From Escherichia coli (GTDB lineage: Bacteria > Pseudomonadota > Gammaproteobacteria > Enterobacterales > Enterobacteriaceae), in NCBI RefSeq assembly GCF_003334815.1, contig NZ_QOWO01000064.1: a DNA stretch of 8,823 nt. One strand, written 5' to 3'. This document shows, piece by piece, positions 1 to 8,823 of the stretch. Each line of letters starts with the position of its first letter. Position 1 is the first letter of the stretch. The position numbers and the translations under genes were made by a program. The notes beneath the pieces are model-generated. The model was not told the DNA's origin and ran no database searches. It worked only from the letters and a program-made list of their open reading frames with translations.

Positions 1-46
1 AACGGTGAACAATATCACCCTGGGTAAGTATCCGGAGGCGAAATGA
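1..46 (+). CDS. 3' end of a CbtA/YeeV-family toxin gene (partial; 5' portion lies outside the window)
   Basis: The frame starting at nt 2 translates TVNNITLGKYPEAK followed by TGA at 44-46. This C-terminal tail matches what I recall for CbtA/YeeV/YkfI/YpjF-type toxins of E. coli CP4-type cryptic prophages. The stop overlaps the next start codon (ATGA at 43-46). Recognition is from memory of a 14-residue tail only. Confidence 0.5.
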   Translation, partial: TVNNITLGKYPEAK

Positions 47-534
47 TGAAACTGGCCCTGACACTGGAAGCCGACAGTGTTAACGTACAGGCACTGAATA
101 TGGGGCGAATTGTCGTTGACATTGATGGTGTTAATCTCGCTGAACTGATTAACATGGTCTGCGATAACGGCTACTCCCTTCGTGTTGTTGATGAATCTGA
201 CCGGACCTCAGCAGACTGCACGCCACCATTTGTTGCCCTTACCGGCATACGCTGCAGTACCGCACATATCACGGAAACGGACAACGCCTGGCTGTACTCG
301 CTGTCACACCAGACCAGTGACTTCGGTGAATCAGAATGGATTCATTTTACCGGTACCGGTTATCTGTTACGTACCGATGCGTGGTCATACCCGGTTCTGC
401 GGCTTAAGCGCCTGGGGCTGTCAAAAACGTTCCGTCGTCTGGTCGTCACACTCATCCGGCGTTATGGTGTCAGTCTCATTCATCTGGATGCCAGTGCCGG
501 ATATCTGCCGGGTTTACCCACTTTCGACTGGTAA
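43..534 (+). CDS. Hypothetical protein of the kind encoded immediately downstream of cbtA-family toxin genes (YeeW-like); family assignment uncertain
   Basis: 163-aa ORF in the six-frame track. Its ATG at 43 overlaps the toxin stop by 4 nt, which is typical of coupled prophage modules. The product looks like a normal mixed-composition protein and resembles proteins I recall downstream of cbtA paralogs. GC about 50-58% by hand count on two lines. Confidence 0.6.
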   Translation: MMKLALTLEADSVNVQALNMGRIVVDIDGVNLAELINMVCDNGYSLRVVDESDRTSADCTPPFVALTGIRCSTAHITETDNAWLYSLSHQTSDFGESEWIHFTGTGYLLRTDAWSYPVLRLKRLGLSKTFRRLVVTLIRRYGVSLIHLDASAGYLPGLPTFDW

Positions 535-550
535 TCCGGAAATTCACAAC

Positions 551-727
551 ATGAAATCATTAACCACGGAAACAGCGCTGGATATTCTGATTACGTGGCT
601 GCAGGACAATATCGACTGCGAATCGGGAATTATCTTCGACAACGATGAGGATAAAACAGGTTCGGCAGCACTGTTGCGCTGTATCGAACAGGCCAGGGAG
701 GGTATCCGTACCCTGCGCCAACAGTAA
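551..727 (+). CDS. Small DUF957-like protein (58 aa)
   Basis: ATG at 551, 16 nt after the preceding stop, translates MKSLTTETALDILITWLQDNIDCESGIIFDNDEDKTGSAALLRCIEQAREGIRTLRQQ and ends at TAA 725-727. It resembles the small DUF957 proteins I recall in CP4-type islands. The track ORF 182..727 is the same frame extended upstream into the 43..534 gene, and I treat that 5' part as spurious. No clear Shine-Dalgarno sequence. Confidence 0.55.
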   Translation: MKSLTTETALDILITWLQDNIDCESGIIFDNDEDKTGSAALLRCIEQAREGIRTLRQQ

Positions 728-778
728 CTTTTGCACCAGAACCAGTGAAGATCACTCACCCGATTTCACTTCCCTGAC

Positions 779-809
779 GTCAGCCTGAACACGGCTGGCG
801 TTTTCATTT
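779..809 (+). terminator. Candidate rho-independent terminator after the DUF957-like gene
   Basis: Stem 779-785 (GTCAGCC) pairs with 793-799 (GGCTGGC), giving 7 bp with one G-U pair, around a 7-nt loop. It is followed by the T-rich tail GTTTTCATTT at 800-809. Confidence 0.45.
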
Positions 810-826
810 ATAAACAGAAAGGAAAA

Positions 827-985
827 ATGATGATGTCAGATACCACACTCTCCCGCCCGGAGGTGGTCAGCGGGCATACGGACGTTATCTATTCCACCTC
901 AGTCTGCCACATTCTGGCTGTACGAAAGAGTACACTGTTGCCAATCGACACAATTATCCGGCATCAAGTAAGCGATATCAGTTAA
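827..985 (+). CDS. Candidate small ORF (52 aa), function unknown
   Basis: ATG at 827 is preceded by AAAGGA at 818-823, a reasonable Shine-Dalgarno spacing. It translates MMMSDTTLSRPEVVSGHTDVIYSTSVCHILAVRKSTLLPIDTIIRHQVSDIS and stops at TAA 983-985. It is absent from the supplied ORF track, presumably for being below the length cut-off, and I do not recognise the family. Confidence 0.25.
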   Translation: MMMSDTTLSRPEVVSGHTDVIYSTSVCHILAVRKSTLLPIDTIIRHQVSDIS

Positions 986-1151
986 CCGATATAGATGGGG
1001 AAGATGCTTTTATCCGGATTGGTTCTATCGCGATGGTGCGAGTACCACTTGATGCAATGGAGCCTGTCGAGGAAGATGACGAGTAACAGAGCTCGGTATC
1101 TCAATCAGGACCTGATTGTCCTGGTTCGATGCCGAAAACCAGTGATTTTTC

Positions 1152-1173
1152 GTGTTGGTATCTGTGTTGGTAT
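1152..1173. repeat. Tandem direct repeat of GTGTTGGTAT (two perfect copies, period 12), with a partial third copy GGTGTTG at 1179-1185
   Basis: Read directly from the sequence: GTGTTGGTAT at 1152-1161 and again at 1164-1173. It lies just upstream of the candidate promoter at 1193-1220. Confidence 0.6.
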
Positions 1174-1192
1174 AGGATGGTGTTGTTTATTA

Positions 1193-1220
1193 TTAACAAT
1201 TTTAAATCATGAGGTTAAAT
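1193..1220 (+). promoter_or_regulatory. Candidate sigma70-type promoter (-35 TTAACA, 16-nt spacer, -10 TTAAAT)
   Basis: TTAACA at 1193-1198 matches TTGACA at 5 of 6 positions and TTAAAT at 1215-1220 matches TATAAT at 4 of 6. Judged by eye only; the predicted start site is near 1227-1230. Confidence 0.2.
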
Positions 1221-1263
1221 CGCATGTTTGAGTCCGGTCTTCGCACCACATCGTATGCAAATC

Positions 1264-1288
1264 GAGTCGCTCAAGGGCGGCTTTTTTT
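1264..1288 (+). terminator. Candidate rho-independent terminator
   Basis: Stem GTCGC (1266-1270) pairs with GCGGC (1277-1281) around the loop TCAAGG, and is followed immediately by a run of seven T at 1282-1288. The stem is short at 5 bp, extendable by A-U and G-U pairs into the T-run. Confidence 0.4.
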
Positions 1289-1636
1289 GTACCTGTGTTT
1301 TCACTACTTTGTTTGCATGTAACGCTGATAATCTAAGAACTTCGGAAGCCCCATTTCCATCAATGATGTTCATTCATCATCCTGAAAATTAAGTAGATAT
1401 AAAACTTCATTGCCTTGGTCTAATGGCACAGAAATAGATTGCATTTGGCGAGTGGCATTCTTAGTGCGTCGTTGTTTAGTCATGAAACGATGCGTAAAAT
1501 TGCTGATTTTATGTGTCAAAGTCCCGCAACCGGAGATGGCCTTACTTCAATGATCAACCACTATTGACGTATCCTTTTAATATCTTGATTCAATTCAGCA
1601 GGTTATCGTCCAAAGTACAGCGAAGAGAGAGAAAAG

Positions 1637-4528
1637 ATGATTGGTACAACACCTTATCATGCGAAATATTTTGCGCATGAACTTTCCATTCTTCATTCAA
1701 ACAATGGGGTGGACCGTCTGTCTCAATCGCTGTTTGATGCAAGCGTAGATCTAAACCCTCATCAAATTGAGGCGGCTCTTTTTGCTATCGAAAATCCGCT
1801 AAGCAAAGGTGTTGTGCTTGCCGATGAAGTTGGTTTGGGTAAAACCATTGAAGCTGGACTAGTGCTTTGCCAGTTGTGGGCTGAAAGAAAACGTAAACTG
1901 TTGATCATTTGTCCTGCTTCACTGCGTCGCCAATGGGCGAGCGAGTTACAGGAAAAGTTCAATCTACCTTCTCAGGTGTTGGACGCGAAAATGTATAGCC
2001 AGCTTCAAAAAGAAGGGATCCATAATCCCTTAAATAATAAATCGATCACTATCATGTCATACCACTATGCTGCTCGGTTAGAAGAGAAATTGGTGGCTGA
2101 AATGTGGGATCTGGTTGTTATCGACGAAGCCCATAAACTGCGTAATGCTCATCGAGAAAGCAACAAAATGGGGCAAGCGTTAAAGCGTGCGCTTGATGGG
2201 CGGAAGAAATTACTACTGACCGCAACGCCTTTACAGAACTCGTTGATGGAACTGTATGGCATGTCGACGCTTATAGATGAACATACCTTCGGCGAAGTTA
2301 AAGCGTTCAGAAAGCAATATATGCAGGCAGATAGCGATATTGCGGAGTTGAAGGGGCGATTGTCGCGTTTTATCAAACGAACTCTACGCAAGAATGTGCT
2401 GGAGTATATCAAGTATACAGAACGTAAAGCGATCACTATTCCTTTCTATCCGAGCGAACAGGAGCAGGATCTTTATGAACGCGTACAAAAATTGCTTGAA
2501 CGTGAGGATAGCTATGCCTTACCAAAACGACACCGGCATCTGACGGGGCTTATACTCAGAAAACTACTTTCCTCAAGTACGAAAGCCGTATTGAATAACT
2601 TGCAGATCCTTAAGACTCGTTTAGAAAGGTTAAAGCTGGAAGGTATCGTTGAAGATGATATGGACATCATCCAACAGATCATAATGGATGATGATCTTGA
2701 AGATGACATCGTTGAAGATGCCGAATCAGTAGCGCCAGATACAGAGTGCAAATCTGTGGATTCAGATGCGCTTCAGGCAGAAATCAATGAGCTGGAATCA
2801 CTCATTGTTAAAGCAGAACAGATTGGCACTGATACCAAATCAAAAGAGTTGCTTTCTGGCCTGGAGCAAGGTTTTGCACAGCTTGCCGAAATGGGGGCTG
2901 CAAAAAAAGTCATCATCTTCACGGAGTCGATGCGAACTCAACAGTACCTTGCACATTTTCTGGAAAACAATGGCTACCAGGGAAAAGTAGTAACCTTTAG
3001 TGGCACAAACAATACACCGCAGGCAAACAAGATCTACCAGCAATGGCGCGAGGAATATCAGGGATCTTCTCGTATTACCGGGTCGGCGCAAATTGATAAA
3101 CGCTCGGCTTTGATCGACCACTTCAAAGATCATGCTGAAATCATGATAGCTACAGAAGCTGCAGCTGAAGGGGTGAACCTGCAATTTTGTTCGCTACTGA
3201 TCAATTACGATTTACCCTGGAACCCACAACGCATTGAGCAGCGTATTGGACGTTGTCACCGATACGGGCAAAAATTTGATGTGGTTGTTATTAACTTCCT
3301 CAATCAGCGAAACCAGGCCGATCAACGCGTTCTTGAACTCTTAACTGAAAAGTTCAGCCTGTTTGATGGCGTGTTTGGCGCATCGGATAGTGTGCTTGGC
3401 AGCATAGAAAATGGTGTGGATTTTGAAAAAAGGATCCAGTCAATTTATGAGTCATGCCGTACCCCCGAGGAGATAGAGCTGGCTTTTGAAAGGTTGCAGA
3501 AAGAGCTGGAAGATGAAATCAATCTCAAGATGCAGAAGACGCAAGAACAGTTGCTTGAGCATTTTGATGAAGATATTCACGATATCCTTAAAATAAGGCT
3601 TGATGAAGCTCGGGAGCGCCTGGATAAAGTCGGTCGTTGGTTTTGGGCCGTGACCTGTCAGCAGCTCAAACAATATGCTGATTTTGATCATGAGCATCAT
3701 CGTTTCACTTTACGTGAATCAGTCAATGAACTGCCTGTCGGGCAGTACCAGCTGTTGCGCAAAGATGGCAGGCAAAATAGTGCGTTACAAATGCAGGATC
3801 ACCACAGTTTTGCATATCGGATCAATCATCCACTGGGTGAGTACGTCATTGACGGAGCTAAAGCCCAGGAGACGAAAACAGCTGAAGTCATCTTCGATTA
3901 CAGTAACCACACAACGAAAGTTTCGGTGGCTGAGCAGCTGAAAGGGCAATCAGGATGGTTAACACTAAATTTGCTTACTGTTGATGCGTTTAACAGGCAG
4001 CAATTTTTAGTCTTTACCGCGAAAACTGACAACGGACGTGTGGTAGATGGTGAAGCTTGTAAACGTCTGTTCAACTTGTCTGCAATAACCAACGAAAAGC
4101 TGGATAATTCGGCAAGTTTAGATGCATTACCTGATGACTTGATCTTACTCAAGAACAGGCAAATTGACGCCAGGCTTGCAGAAGTTTTGGAGCAGAACAA
4201 TGTCCTTTTTGAAGCGGAAAGAGATAAGCTGGAAAAATGGGCTGAAGACATGATCTTTGCGGCGGAAGAAGCATTACGCGATACCAAAATGCAAATCAAG
4301 TCGTTGAAGCGAGAAGCCAGGCTGGCGCAATCGATCGAAGAACAAAAGCAAAACCAGGAAAAGCTTAAGCTCCTGGAACGGCAGCAGAAGCGCCAACGTA
4401 TGGAAATTTTTGACATTGAAGATGAGATCGCCGACAAGCGGGATGAACTCATCAGTGCCCTTGAAGAGCGGATGAAGCAAAAGACGGATATCACCGAGCT
4501 GTTTACCATCCGCTGGAAAGTTATTTAA
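1637..4528 (+). CDS. SNF2-family (DEAH-type superfamily 2) helicase/ATPase, 963 aa; candidate DrmD-like component
   Basis: Motifs are visible in the translation: Walker A GLGKT (nt 1832-1846), motif II DEAH (2123-2134), the SNF2-type motif III TATPLQN, and in the C-terminal lobe motif V IATEAAAEGVNLQ and motif VI QRIGRCHRYGQ (3239-3271). A purine-rich Shine-Dalgarno-like stretch (AGAGAGAGAAAAG) precedes the ATG. GC about 43-47% by hand count. Confidence 0.9.
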   Translation: MIGTTPYHAKYFAHELSILHSNNGVDRLSQSLFDASVDLNPHQIEAALFAIENPLSKGVVLADEVGLGKTIEAGLVLCQLWAERKRKLLIICPASLRRQWASELQEKFNLPSQVLDAKMYSQLQKEGIHNPLNNKSITIMSYHYAARLEEKLVAEMWDLVVIDEAHKLRNAHRESNKMGQALKRALDGRKKLLLTATPLQNSLMELYGMSTLIDEHTFGEVKAFRKQYMQADSDIAELKGRLSRFIKRTLRKNVLEYIKYTERKAITIPFYPSEQEQDLYERVQKLLEREDSYALPKRHRHLTGLILRKLLSSSTKAVLNNLQILKTRLERLKLEGIVEDDMDIIQQIIMDDDLEDDIVEDAESVAPDTECKSVDSDALQAEINELESLIVKAEQIGTDTKSKELLSGLEQGFAQLAEMGAAKKVIIFTESMRTQQYLAHFLENNGYQGKVVTFSGTNNTPQANKIYQQWREEYQGSSRITGSAQIDKRSALIDHFKDHAEIMIATEAAAEGVNLQFCSLLINYDLPWNPQRIEQRIGRCHRYGQKFDVVVINFLNQRNQADQRVLELLTEKFSLFDGVFGASDSVLGSIENGVDFEKRIQSIYESCRTPEEIELAFERLQKELEDEINLKMQKTQEQLLEHFDEDIHDILKIRLDEARERLDKVGRWFWAVTCQQLKQYADFDHEHHRFTLRESVNELPVGQYQLLRKDGRQNSALQMQDHHSFAYRINHPLGEYVIDGAKAQETKTAEVIFDYSNHTTKVSVAEQLKGQSGWLTLNLLTVDAFNRQQFLVFTAKTDNGRVVDGEACKRLFNLSAITNEKLDNSASLDALPDDLILLKNRQIDARLAEVLEQNNVLFEAERDKLEKWAEDMIFAAEEALRDTKMQIKSLKREARLAQSIEEQKQNQEKLKLLERQQKRQRMEIFDIEDEIADKRDELISALEERMKQKTDITELFTIRWKVI

Positions 4529-4548
4529 TTGATTTGAAAGAGAAAATA

Positions 4549-7500
4549 ATGAGTAAGTACAACGAATTAGTTAAGAAGCTAAAAGAAATTTTTCAGATTG
4601 ATCGACCAGAACTGGATTTCGGTATTTATCGTATTTTAAATGCGCGTGCTGATGAAATTAACGACTATCTGGATAATAAGCTGAAGGCCAAAATCCAGTC
4701 TGCGCTGGCGGATGCAGGAAATGCCAATAAATCAGAATTAGAACATCAGTTGCAACTGACAATAAAAGCGGCAACTGATGCGGGTGTAGACCCTGCTGAT
4801 AGCCCAAAAGTACAGGAGCTTAAAAAGCAACTGGCGGCTATGGCATCCGGAGCAAATGAGCATGAAAATGCAGTATTTTCCCATCTGCTCACTTTCTTTT
4901 CGCGTTATTATGACAACGGCGATTTTATCAGCAAACGCCGTTATAAAGGTAATACCTACGCCATCCCCTATTCTGGCGAAGAAGTGATGTTGCACTGGGC
5001 AAATAAGGACCAGTACTACATTAAAAGCGGTGAAAACTTCGCTAATTATTCGTTCAAATTAGAAGACGGTCGTAAAGTTAGCTTTAAATTGCTCGCAGCG
5101 GACACAGCAAAAGATAACCGTAAAGATAATGAATTAGATCGCTGCTTTGTACTTATTGAGCCACATGTTCGTACCAAAATTGATGAAGAAGGCGATGAGT
5201 ACGAACAAGAATATAAGCCAGTAGAAGTGGTGAAAAACTCATCTGTGGTGGACGGTAAACTCGTTGAAACAGAAGAGTTAGTTATTCACTTCGAATATAA
5301 GGCAATGAAAAAGGGCACTAAGCAGGATGCTTTAGTACAGTCCGCCATTTCAACAATTCTGGCAGATAAAACAGTTCAACAGCATTGGGTTGATCTTGCT
5401 AAACGTGCGCCAACAGAAAAGAATCCGTCACGTACAGAGTTGGAGCGTCACCTTACAACTTATACCCAGCGTAATACAGCAGACTACTTTATCCATAAAG
5501 ATCTCGGTGGTTTTTTAACGAACGAACTGGATTTTTATATTAAAAATGAAGTAATGAATCTCGATAATGTGCAAAATGCAGAAGTGTTTGCCAATGTTGA
5601 GAAACAATTGCGCATGATTCAATGTTTGCGTGCTGTTGCGCTGGAACTCATTACATTTTTGGCACAAATTGAGAATTTCCAGAAAAAACTTTGGACTAAG
5701 AAGAAGTTTGTTGTTGGGCATGAGTATCTTGTGTCACTTTCAAATCTATCAGATTCGCTTTACGATAAAATTCGAACTAATAAAGGGCAACATGATGAAT
5801 GGGTTGAGCTTTATGCTGTAAATAAAATTCCTGGATATTCATTTCCATTCACAAAAGATTTCTTGTATAAAAATAATGGTATGATATTGGATACAAAATA
5901 TTTTGATCCGTCATTTAAGGAGGTTTTTTTAACAGAGTTAACTAATGTTGACGATAATTTAGATGGTCTCTTAATTAATTCAGATAATTATCAGGCCATT
6001 AATTTTTTGGAGGGGCGGTATAAGGACTCAATAGACTGTCTTTATATTGATCCTCCGTATAATACTGCGGCTTCAGAAATTTTATATAAAAATGAATATA
6101 AGCACAGCAGCTGGAATTCATTAATGTATGAAAGGATATCTAAAAGCTATAATTTACTGAAAATTTCTGCAATTAATTTTACCGCGATAGATCATGCGGA
6201 ATTATATAATCTTGGTAAGATCAAGGATGAAATCTATGGAGAACAAAACAGGATAGCAGTTGTTACTGTTCAGCATAATCCTAAAGGGCGTAACCAGGCA
6301 AAGTTCTTTTCTGAAAATACTGAGTATATGTTAGTATATGCTAAAGATTTTAATGCTGCTAACTTTAACTCTGTAGCTATCGATGAGGATGTGCTTTTAA
6401 CATTCACAGAACAAGATAATATAGGCCGTTATCGTTGGGAAAACTTTATTCGTGCAAGAACAAGTTGGTCCAGAGCAAATAGACCAAATAACTGGTATCC
6501 TTTATACGTCTCTTCCGACTTAAAATCAATTTCTGTTGATTATGTAGATGGGTATATCGAAGTATATCCTACAACTAAACAGGGGGATTTTTCGTGGAAA
6601 AATATTAAAGAATCATTTGTTGAATTAAATAAAGATAATTATTTTAAAGCTGTAAATGAAAATGGAGAAATAAAAATCTATCATAAATATAGGGAGCAGC
6701 AAGTCTTTAAAAATCTTTGGATTGATAAGAAATATCAGTCTGAGTTTAATGGTACAAATTTACTGAAAAACATACTTGGACAATCACTATTTGATTATCC
6801 GAAATCATTATATGCAGTACAAGATGCAATCAAAATGTCGACACCACACAATGGTATTGTATTGGACTATTTTGCAGGTTCAGGGACAACTTCTCATGCA
6901 GTAATAAACCTTAATAATTCAGATAATCTCTGTATGAAATTTATCAATGTTGAAATGGGTACTCATTTCAATACAGTAGTTATTCCAAGATTGAAGAAAA
7001 TTGGATATTCAAACTTATGGAAACAATGTAAACCAATCGGTAAACCTCAAAAAATGACTATCAAGTATTTGAAACTTGAAAGTTATGAGGATGCTCTTAA
7101 TAATATACAATTACGAAGTTATTCATTGCATCAGGATATTTTCGACATTTTGGTGGAAGATGTAAAATCAGAGTTTGCTCTTAAATATATTTTTGAAAAT
7201 GAATTATTTTATTCACTATTAAATACTGATAATTTCAAAAAACCATTTAACTACGAAATGGATATTGCGACGGATTCCGCCGGTGCCACTGAGCGTAAAA
7301 ACATCGATTTAGTTGAAACTTTCAATTATCTCATTGGCTTACATGTGAAATCCATCGAATCTGATATCGCACGTGGCTATGTGCGTATTGAAGGAACGCT
7401 GCCAACAGGCGAGCGTACCCTTATTCTGTGGCGCGATTGCGACAAGATCGGTTATGAAGAATTGAATAAATATGCCAACCGATTTGATTTGTATGCAAAA

Positions 7501-7653
7501 GAAAACACGTTCGACGTTATCTACATCAATGGCGATCATAACTTACCTACCGCCTTTACCGTTGATGAAGAAGACGGCGAGATTGTTCGTAGCCTGAAAA
7601 TTCGCCAGATCGAACCTGAATTCTTGAACCTGATGTTTGCGGAGGAGGTTTAA
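4549..7653 (+). CDS. Beta-class DNA methyltransferase (N6-adenine/N4-cytosine type, Type III Mod-like catalytic core) with a ~420-aa N-terminal extension, 1034 aa; candidate DrmMI-like component
   Basis: Motif IV DPPY (CLYIDPPYN, nt 6049-6060) precedes motif I FxGxG (LDYFAGSGTT, nt 6865-6891) by about 270 residues, which is the beta-class order with room for a target-recognition domain between them. I place the start at ATG 4549, preceded by AAAGAG; the track starts at an in-frame TTG at 4534, which remains a possible alternative. Only 20 nt separate it from the upstream stop. Confidence 0.88.
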   Translation: MSKYNELVKKLKEIFQIDRPELDFGIYRILNARADEINDYLDNKLKAKIQSALADAGNANKSELEHQLQLTIKAATDAGVDPADSPKVQELKKQLAAMASGANEHENAVFSHLLTFFSRYYDNGDFISKRRYKGNTYAIPYSGEEVMLHWANKDQYYIKSGENFANYSFKLEDGRKVSFKLLAADTAKDNRKDNELDRCFVLIEPHVRTKIDEEGDEYEQEYKPVEVVKNSSVVDGKLVETEELVIHFEYKAMKKGTKQDALVQSAISTILADKTVQQHWVDLAKRAPTEKNPSRTELERHLTTYTQRNTADYFIHKDLGGFLTNELDFYIKNEVMNLDNVQNAEVFANVEKQLRMIQCLRAVALELITFLAQIENFQKKLWTKKKFVVGHEYLVSLSNLSDSLYDKIRTNKGQHDEWVELYAVNKIPGYSFPFTKDFLYKNNGMILDTKYFDPSFKEVFLTELTNVDDNLDGLLINSDNYQAINFLEGRYKDSIDCLYIDPPYNTAASEILYKNEYKHSSWNSLMYERISKSYNLLKISAINFTAIDHAELYNLGKIKDEIYGEQNRIAVVTVQHNPKGRNQAKFFSENTEYMLVYAKDFNAANFNSVAIDEDVLLTFTEQDNIGRYRWENFIRARTSWSRANRPNNWYPLYVSSDLKSISVDYVDGYIEVYPTTKQGDFSWKNIKESFVELNKDNYFKAVNENGEIKIYHKYREQQVFKNLWIDKKYQSEFNGTNLLKNILGQSLFDYPKSLYAVQDAIKMSTPHNGIVLDYFAGSGTTSHAVINLNNSDNLCMKFINVEMGTHFNTVVIPRLKKIGYSNLWKQCKPIGKPQKMTIKYLKLESYEDALNNIQLRSYSLHQDIFDILVEDVKSEFALKYIFENELFYSLLNTDNFKKPFNYEMDIATDSAGATERKNIDLVETFNYLIGLHVKSIESDIARGYVRIEGTLPTGERTLILWRDCDKIGYEELNKYANRFDLYAKENTFDVIYINGDHNLPTAFTVDEEDGEIVRSLKIRQIEPEFLNLMFAEEV
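7641..7648 (+). promoter_or_regulatory. Shine-Dalgarno sequence GGAGGAGG for the third gene, embedded in the last codons of the methyltransferase gene
   Basis: GGAGGAGG lies 7 nt upstream of ATG 7656. The methyltransferase stop (7651-7653) and the next start are 2 nt apart, which suggests translational coupling. Confidence 0.6.
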
Positions 7654-7655
7654 GA

Positions 7656-8669
7656 ATGGCTAAAAAACCGACCACCGGTAAAGCAGTTAAAAAAGAGACT
7701 AACAGCAAGCTGAGCTTTCATAAACAACTGGTTTTAAACCGCTTTATGTTCCATTTTTTCAAAGATGGCACATTGCAAGGTTTGAAGAATCGGTTAGGCG
7801 AGGATCGCTTTGAAGGCATCCATGAAGATGGCCAAAGCTTGTTCTTCCATGAGCTGAGTAACTATTTATTCGAGGTCGATCTAATCGATCTCGATGAACT
7901 GCGTCGTTACGATCTCAATATCGTGCAGCACTGGCAGCAGATAACCGAGCACCGTAATCGTAAAGAAGACACTGTGCTGAACATGAAATATTTTCAGTAC
8001 TTGTCGCTTCTGTTTACCGAGATCTACCTGGACTGGTACTTCAATCGTAAACAGCAATTACTCGATGGGCTAAATAACGAGCTGGCAGCATACAATGCTG
8101 AAAATGATAAAACAGCAAAAGACCGGGCTAATCAGTTCAAATCATATGTTCTGGATGATTTGAATAAATTGGCATACTGGAACGCTACTGGTTCTGGTAA
8201 GACACTGCTATTACATGTCAATATTTTGCAATATTTACATTATTTCCAGAACGGTAATAGCCATCATTATCCGGATAAAATCATCCTGCTTACGCCGGAT
8301 GAACGCCTGTCGAAGCAACATTTAGATGAACTGGAAAACTCAGGGTTTACCCAATACCAGTTGTTCGATAAGAGTAAATCAGCGCCCTTCAAAGGCACGA
8401 TTGAAGTCATTGATATCAATAAACTTGATGATAAAATGGGCGACAAAACTGTTGCCGTTGAGGCATTTGAAGGCAACAATCTGGTCCTGATTGATGAAGG
8501 GCATAAAGGCACAGGAAGTGCTGCTGGTGCCTGGATGCGCCGTCGTGACAAGTTAACTCGTGACGGATTTGCGTTTGAATATTCAGCAACTTTTGGCCAG
8601 GCAGTAGCCGGTGGCAATAATGTGGAGGCAGTTGAAACAGAAATTCAGAAGAAAAAAGCAAAGCTCTGA
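7656..8669 (+). CDS. Helicase-like ATPase containing only the first RecA-like lobe (Type III Res-like / DrmA-like N-terminal region), 337 aa; probably truncated or disrupted
   Basis: Walker A ATGSGKT (nt 8184-8204; GSGKT at 8190-8204), motif II LIDEGH (DEGH at 8493-8504) and a motif III-like SAT (8583-8591) are present. The ORF stops at 8667-8669 with no motifs IV-VI and no arginine-finger region. The following 8670-8732 has stops in all three forward frames. Confidence 0.75.
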   Translation: MAKKPTTGKAVKKETNSKLSFHKQLVLNRFMFHFFKDGTLQGLKNRLGEDRFEGIHEDGQSLFFHELSNYLFEVDLIDLDELRRYDLNIVQHWQQITEHRNRKEDTVLNMKYFQYLSLLFTEIYLDWYFNRKQQLLDGLNNELAAYNAENDKTAKDRANQFKSYVLDDLNKLAYWNATGSGKTLLLHVNILQYLHYFQNGNSHHYPDKIILLTPDERLSKQHLDELENSGFTQYQLFDKSKSAPFKGTIEVIDINKLDDKMGDKTVAVEAFEGNNLVLIDEGHKGTGSAAGAWMRRRDKLTRDGFAFEYSATFGQAVAGGNNVEAVETEIQKKKAKL

Positions 8670-8823
8670 GAGATCCCCTCATAATTTCCCCAAAGCGTAA
8701 CCATGTGTGAATAAATTTTGAGCTAGTAGGGTTGCAGCCACGAGTAAGTCTTCCCTTGTTATTGTGTAGCCAGAATGCCGCAAAACTTCCATGCCTAAGC
8801 GAACTGTTGAGAGTACGTTTCGA

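Follow-up and report, generated by a model that had tools for sequence, protein, structure and literature searches.

A putative defence gene cluster in Escherichia coli probably lies outside the neighbouring CP4-44-like island at leuX

Do defence genes that adjoin the tail of an integrase-bearing island belong to that island? The question is raised by a stretch of 8,823 nucleotides (nt) from Escherichia coli (RefSeq assembly GCF_003334815.1, contig NZ_QOWO01000064.1), which we call the window. In it, genes of the kind found at the far end of CP4-type elements are followed by a predicted defence cluster encoding an SNF2-family helicase, a type III-like methyltransferase (Mod) and part of a type III-like helicase-nuclease (Res). 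An earlier interpretation made from the letters alone, here the sequence-only reading, had taken the defence genes to be horizontally acquired cargo, located either inside the variable region of the element or next to it. Our analysis indicates that the window very probably spans the right junction of a CP4-44-like island of about 22 kb at the tRNA gene leuX, with the defence genes beyond it, in the published defence hotspot #37.

We compared the window by megablast with 5426 complete E. coli genomes. Positions 1-8665 are 100% identical to several chromosomes, including NZ_AP025205.2, and in that genome the whole locus can be followed. From the left, it reads ahr, leuX, a tyrosine integrase gene, insertion sequence (IS) elements and genes for Ag43, a yeeR-like product, IrmA, DUF905 and DUF932. 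These are followed by antirestriction, JAB, DUF987, YeeU antitoxin, CbtA, DUF5983 and DUF957 genes. Next comes the cluster, with genes for SNF2, the methyltransferase, a 1126-amino-acid (aa) DEAD/DEAH helicase and a 100-aa open reading frame (ORF), and a truncated phosphorothioate (PT)-dependent nuclease gene; nanS, nanM, nanC and fim form the right flank. The tyrosine recombinase gene is located about 190 nt past leuX, about 21 kb to the left of the first window position, and insertions of IS3, IS911 and IS1 are present in the island. An integrase, a tRNA attachment site and a direct repeat, which the sequence-only reading had proposed to look for in the larger contig, were all found in this identical genome.

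The repeat itself is in the window, at 1227-1249 on the plus strand. When aligned with the intact leuX gene of strain A20, it is seen to be a direct but degenerate copy of the 3' end of this tRNA-Leu gene: its sequence, GTTTGAGTCCGGTCTTC-GCACCA, differs from the leuX 3' end, GTTCGAGTCCGGCCTTCGGCACCA, by two mismatches and one deletion. An ungapped search with a 17-mer of leuX, allowing up to 3 mismatches, recovered it with 2 mismatches as the sole plus-strand copy in the 48.7 kb around the locus, where 0.11 chance matches are expected. An ungapped 24-mer search with up to 3 mismatches missed it because of its 1-nt deletion, and ARAGORN and Rfam reported no tRNA and no RNA family in the window because 23 nt are too short for their models.

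The sequence to the right of the repeat is that which normally follows leuX. Positions 1250-1289 (plus strand) are identical to the DNA directly after intact leuX in strains A20 and E57, and to that after attR in strain WI2; they include the tRNA terminator, for which a terminator scan gave a stem-loop at 1264-1283 and a T run at 1282-1288. Similarity to WI2 stops at 1289 and that to E57 at 1295. At this point begins a non-coding leader specific to the cluster (1290-1636, plus strand; 39.5% GC, measured over 1250-1636), which bounds the variable defence segment on the left. The match of strain A20 to the window starts only at 1226, inside the intact tRNA-Leu gene; from there, A20 follows window 1226-8665 at 99.5% identity, with no island between leuX and the cluster, and strain GF50 has the same island-free layout. 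The leuX region of K-12 has nothing in common with the window except the flank on the nanS side and is therefore not a useful empty-site reference.

From these alignments, we assign 1227-1249 as the predicted attR of an integrase-bearing, CP4-44-like island, whose length of about 22 kb is taken from the coordinates. Because this site lies between the CP4 genes and the cluster, the defence genes, which begin past nt 1290 on the chromosomal side of attR, would be outside the element. The features of island membership that were found are an integrase next to a tRNA gene (in NZ_AP025205.2), attR, the JAB-DUF987-CbeA/YeeU-CbtA-YeeW module and an empty site.

The distribution of the two parts gives the same picture. 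The defence cluster (searched as window 1296-4528) is present in 152 of the 5426 genomes, while the island tail with attR and terminator (window 1090-1292) is present in 1003; the two are joined as in the window (900-1700) in 102. The same island end with other cargo, for example, a type I restriction-modification (RM) system with McrBC, occurs in about 900 genomes, and the junction of intact leuX, terminator and cluster leader, free of the island, occurs in 34, including A20 and GF50. In WI2, the island tail and attR are 99.8% identical to the window and are followed by hsdRSM, DUF4942 and McrBC genes; similarity to the NZ_AP025205.2 locus resumes at the stop codon of the PT-dependent nuclease gene. 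Besides type I RM and McrBC, the defence cargo of this strain includes a PT-dependent nuclease. Both the island and this cluster are missing from E57, where the same terminator is followed by HNH, AAA, REase, TIR and type I RM genes. The variable defence segment of NZ_AP025205.2 corresponds to locus positions 21290-31689 (about 10.4 kb). All four combinations of presence and absence exist, and island and cluster are independent occupants of the leuX hotspot.

The sequence-only reading was thus right that the defence genes were horizontally acquired, given their presence in 152 genomes and the other defence systems found at the same place elsewhere; the comparison with related genomes that it had proposed shows the cluster replaced by other cargo. 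Its placement of the cluster inside the variable region of the element did not hold, as attR intervenes and the window is collinear with the island-free A20 and GF50 from 1226. Its second option, insertion next to the element, is correct only as adjacency; island and cluster also occur separately.

Several points weigh against placing the window at the junction of two separate occupants. The integrase, the intact leuX and attL all lie outside the window, and we infer them from genomes that are identical over 1-8665 and from which the strain of the window differs by an IS10 insertion at 8666. Island and cluster co-occur more often than at random, namely in 102 genomes where the marginals predict about 28; this excess could mean linkage, and shared clonal descent explains it equally well. 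The attR is degenerate, so the island may now be unable to excise. The transfer route of the defence segment is one that we infer, no integrase remnant being seen in window 1200-1700.

The island would have arrived by tyrosine-integrase recombination at leuX, with attR as the displaced and decaying leuX 3' end. In the simplest history, it would have integrated into a leuX gene that was already followed by the cluster; given the 34 genomes with the island-free junction, a single island integration is enough to produce the layout of the window, with no extra step. The defence segment would have its own history of exchange, for which homologous recombination through the conserved flanks is the most likely route.

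Where the cluster came from before that is a further question, and one answer, compatible with the history above and concerning origin only, is that it is the remnant of a different, older leuX island which lost its integrase and integrase-proximal arm, the CP4-44-like island having later inserted in tandem upstream. Strains E57 (locus 14062-14366) and WI2 (14391-14560) speak for such a history: in both, the terminator is followed by an arm homologous to the interval between leuX and the integrase gene in K-12 and strain 2017.04.03CC, that is, to the attL arm upstream of int. In other genomes, the matches to this arm are the 5' ends of integrase/DUF4102 genes, and E57 even keeps a stub corresponding to integrase residues 7-69 (tblastn E value of 6e-16), while neither strain has an intact integrase gene ahead of its defence genes. 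Judged by these similarities, the cargo of E57 and WI2 looks like decayed leuX islands in tandem, and at least some of the hotspot cargo that seems to lack a mobile genetic element (MGE) would be of this kind. The cluster studied here has left no such traces. The similarity ends at 1290-1296 in A20 as in the window, with no arm after it, no remnant of an integrase or a WYL regulator was found in window 1200-1700 at E values of up to 10, and the ungapped 17-mer search (up to 3 mismatches) detected no second copy of the leuX 3' end, and hence no distal repeat, in the roughly 27 kb right of the cluster. For this cluster, an island origin is an argument by analogy only; we regard it as possible but on balance somewhat doubtful.

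The block also exists on a plasmid. NZ_CP195970.1 (123 kb; locus 8723-19556) carries SNF2, Mod and Res genes with the 100-aa ORF and the truncated PT-dependent nuclease gene, SNF2 being about 80% and Res about 96.5% identical to those of the NZ_AP025205.2 locus. This copy is preceded by a truncated WYL-domain gene and lies between IS1 and IS5, which shows that IS-mediated capture also occurs and that the block does move.

This mobility bears on the order of events. The cluster might have arrived after the island in this lineage, replacing earlier downstream cargo by recombination in the flanks. Besides the 99.8% identical island tail, WI2 and the window share two peculiarities of attR, the T at position 4 and the missing G, and yet their cargo differs; this suggests one integration followed by cargo exchange, or the reverse, and the plasmid copy shows that the block is mobile. 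The same junction of leuX, terminator and cluster is, however, found without the island in 34 genomes, and we consider a later arrival of the cluster unlikely, if not negligibly so. Integration of the island ahead of a resident cluster is the simplest history. For the hotspot as a whole, we tentatively propose, with a little less than even confidence, that its seemingly MGE-less cargo is the debris of serial leuX islands. Some of it would be scarred, as in E57 and WI2, and some, like SNF2-Mod-Res, scarless, shuffled by flank recombination or by IS capture onto plasmids, independently of the resident island.

Base composition changes near the same junction. The GC content is 50.1% over 1-1000 (51.8% in the DUF5983 gene and 49.2% in the DUF957 ORF) and 45.5% over 728-1226, compared with about 51% for the E. 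coli genome. On the other side, the SNF2 gene has 44.5%, the 5' part of res 42.1% and the Mod gene 35.7% overall, with 31.1% in its core (5700-7350), where single 60-nt lines fall to 15-28%. We located the break with a maximum-likelihood model of a single change point, using 1000 mononucleotide shuffles as the null. The best position in 1-1636 is after nt 1134, about 90 nt left of the structural junction at 1227, with a log-likelihood ratio (LLR) of 8.9, a value reached by 0 of 1000 shuffles; for 1-4528, it was reached by 5 of 1000. The compositional break near 1134 is real. It would reflect that a host-like island tail and a more AT-rich defence segment have separate origins.

The observation that prompted this work, a tail of CP4-type genes and then a GC break ahead of the defence genes, is therefore confirmed as a whole, including the value of about 32% GC for 1381-1440 (measured, 31.7%). 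Two details needed correction: the upper bound of 58% GC given for the left end is too high, as the highest 300-nt window reaches only 53.7%, and the AT-rich sequence, said to start at about nt 1000, starts about 130 nt further to the right. Could the drop be an ordinary local fluctuation, such as intergenic AT-richness, carrying no historical signal? It does start in non-coding DNA (1087-1636), a class that is generally AT-rich in E. coli, its LLR is modest, and the largest break of the window is inside the defence cluster, away from the junction. However, no shuffle reached the observed value, the low GC continues over about 7 kb of coding DNA (36-45% versus about 51%), and the break comes just ahead of a junction that was defined independently, so that we consider a mere fluctuation very unlikely. 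As a separate observation, the strongest GC change point anywhere in the window (LLR of 30.8) falls at 4516, on the boundary of the SNF2 and Mod genes.

It is extremely improbable that the cluster forms part of the variable region in the CP4-type element, as cargo, and travels with it: the two do adjoin in 102 genomes, more often than chance predicts, but attR separates them, in 34 genomes an intact leuX leads directly into the cluster and the island is absent, the same island end occurs without the cluster in about 900, and the ungapped 17-mer search (up to 3 mismatches) gave no further leuX repeat in the roughly 27 kb right of the cluster.

The leuX interval is the "hotspot #37" of Hochhauser, Millman and Sorek (2023; PMC10121019), who described it as the defence hotspot with the highest diversity and occupancy in E. 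coli, with no mobile element detected in 68% of cases and an undetermined mode of mobilisation. A 2025 review (PMC12707154) likewise describes it as anchored by leuX. The interval is the same here, with ahr and leuX on one side and nanS-nanM-nanC-fim (fimB) on the other. Here too, defence systems replace one another between strains, as in WI2 and E57, and, as is often the case in the hotspot, no recognisable mobile element surrounds the defence genes. We see no essential difference from the published hotspot; the arrangement is already known, and the window is an instance of it. What is added here are the exact coordinates of attR and terminator and, for this cargo, the separability of the integrase island from the defence segment.

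The result is mostly bookkeeping: it locates the window precisely, on the attR side of an island at leuX, past which hotspot #37 lies. It does correct a tempting assumption, namely that the integrase-bearing element next door carries the defence genes, and for predictions of how defence genes spread, it means that the integrase visible here cannot be the mover of those next to it. Integrase stubs and integrase-proximal arms in other strains offer a cheap route to asking how hotspot #37 fills.

The island closely resembles CP4-44 of K-12 (flu-yeeR-yeeS-yeeT-cbeA-cbtA-yeeW). Both have the same distal order, from Ag43 to JAB, DUF987, YeeU/CbeA, CbtA and YeeW/DUF5983, and DNA identity to K-12 CP4-44 is 81-82% over window 1-194 and 666-834 (81% for 1-194, covering cbtA/yeeW), the part equivalent to 195-665 being deleted in K-12. 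The CP4-type character that the sequence-only reading had assigned to the left-end genes is borne out by this gene order and identity for CP4-44, the element compared among the three it had named (the others being CP4-57 and CP4-6). Like related islands with P4-type integrases at tRNA genes, the island has a tyrosine integrase beside the tRNA gene and a repeat of the tRNA 3' end at its far end. It differs from K-12 CP4-44 in its site, leuX, in having a full-length DUF5983 gene (163 aa) where K-12 has the 64-aa YeeW, and in the presence of the "DUF957" ORF.

All genes of the island tail are on the plus strand. Positions 1-46 hold the last 14 codons and the stop codon of a cbtA-family toxin gene, identified by translation and genome match: the translation of 2-46, TVNNITLGKYPEAK followed by the stop, shows no differences from the C terminus of K-12 CbtA, and the region is 100% identical to the gene annotated in RefSeq as "TA system toxin CbtA family protein" in NZ_AP025205.2. 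The start of the next ORF overlaps this stop codon. This ORF (43-534; 163 aa) is a DUF5983 gene (Pfam DUF5983_N, E value of 3e-31; DUF5983, 3e-21), named DUF5983/Aec77 in source annotations, and its N terminus aligns with the truncated 64-aa YeeW of K-12 CP4-44, of which it is the full-length counterpart. The third ORF (551-727; 58 aa) is annotated as a DUF957-domain protein (Aec78) under the RefSeq and NCBI names of identical sequences. It had no match in a Pfam-A scan (E values of up to 10), in PHROGs or in NCBIfam, and the DUF957 label therefore comes from source annotation alone. NCBIfam has no models for CbtA, DUF5983 or DUF957, and the PHROGs search gave only weak matches of unknown function. 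The three genes named by the sequence-only reading, a cbtA 3' end, a YeeW-like and a DUF957-like ORF, are thus all present, the last with its name from source annotation only. A terminator-like hairpin (776-802; 10 pairs followed by a T-rich tail) lies just 3' of the DUF957 ORF and probably marks the end of the toxin-module transcript.

Two pseudogene fragments follow (833-1086), known from the RefSeq pseudogene annotation of the 100%-identical genome. The first (833-982) is the N-terminal part of a hypothetical, DUF4942-like gene, in which 900-963 matches DUF4942 genes across many genomes, and the second (973-1086) is the C-terminal part of a helix-turn-helix regulator gene. The remaining 1087-1226, the non-coding distal arm of the island, contains the GC change point, is common to about 1000 genomes together with attR and presumably acts as the integrase arm region.

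The defence genes proper are also on the plus strand. The first (1637-4528) encodes a DrmD-like SNF2-family helicase of 963 aa, recognized by PADLOC (DrmD, E value of 4e-199) and by the Pfam domains SNF2-rel_dom and Helicase_C; with the NCBIfam model DISARM_DrmD_b, it scored 667 bits against a cut-off of 950. The second (4549-7653; mechanical ORF start at TTG 4534) encodes a type III-like Mod methyltransferase of 1034 aa, matched over its full length by the PADLOC model MTase_III (1551 bits) and at aa 495-804 by Pfam N6_N4_Mtase. Its motif order, DPPY at aa 501 ahead of FxGxG at aa 775, is that of the beta class.

The middle of the Mod gene varies between alleles. Similarity to the DNA of strains STN0717-20 and GF50 is lost from about 5715 to 7060 or 7212, whereas the flanks are 93-99% identical. 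At the protein level, identity among the three alleles is at least 94% both in aa 1-350 and between about aa 950 and the C terminus, falls to 80-82% in a transition block (aa 351-400), and is only 10-60% in the core (aa ~390-930). The cores all have 31-34% GC. This AT-rich variable core (5715-7060, plus strand), delimited by the allele comparison, holds the catalytic motifs and the target-recognition region and appears to be a specificity cassette swapped between alleles.

The third gene (7656-8665) is the 5' third of a type III-like Res helicase-nuclease gene, truncated, as comparison with an intact homologue shows, to 337 of 1126 aa; it is cut after codon 336, and a stop codon follows at 8667-8669, within an IS. 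The full-length homologue scored 2306 bits with PADLOC REase_III and has Pfam ResIII/DEAD matches. The last 158 nt of the window (8666-8823) are the end of an IS10/ISVsa5 element (IS4 family), identified by plasmid matches and 96-99% identical to ISVsa5 ends on 1165 plasmid records. The element begins at 8666 with CTGAGAGATCCCCTCAT, which we take to be an IS10-type end. The insertion at 8665/8666 is in none of the 5426 complete genomes, in which all matches end at 8665. In this strain, Res would accordingly be knocked out, with Mod and SNF2 predicted to be intact, a point to bear in mind for any phenotype attributed to the cluster.

With type III RM systems such as EcoP15I, the cluster shares a beta-class Mod of the N6-adenine type with a variable middle, and a large Res of the superfamily 2 helicase type beside mod. 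It differs from the classical systems in the larger size of Res (1126 aa) and of Mod, which at 1034 aa includes a conserved extension of about 390 aa at its N terminus, and in the gene for the 963-aa SNF2 helicase directly upstream on the same strand. With class 1 DISARM (drmD, drmMI, drmA, drmB and drmC), it shares an SNF2 helicase followed by an adenine-type methyltransferase; DrmD models match this helicase best, though below the curated NCBIfam cut-off. We tried DISARM as a candidate by gene membership and rejected it: the cluster consists of SNF2, Mod, Res and the 100-aa ORF, with no gene for DrmA, DrmB (DUF1998) or DrmC (PLD), and its third protein, Res, matches the REase_III model only. 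The cluster is therefore not a DISARM system; it is best described as a putative RM pair of the type III-like kind, accompanied by an SNF2 protein. A search of the literature for a combination of DrmD with a type III system turned up nothing specific.

The 100-aa ORF converges on res from the minus strand, to the right of the window (NZ_AP025205.2 locus 31083-31385). It is conserved, gave no match with PADLOC, NCBIfam or PHROGs, and accompanies the cluster on the chromosome as well as on the plasmid. The PT-dependent nuclease is represented twice in the NZ_AP025205.2 locus, by an intact restriction endonuclease gene in the island near the integrase (2567-3403) and by a truncated, diverged copy right of the defence cluster (31695-32116). 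In strain 64 (locus 9051-9990), an IS1 copy sits at a deletion junction; everything from about window nt 1346 to fimH is lost, which removes the defence cluster, nan and most of fim and leaves the island end, attR and the terminator in place.

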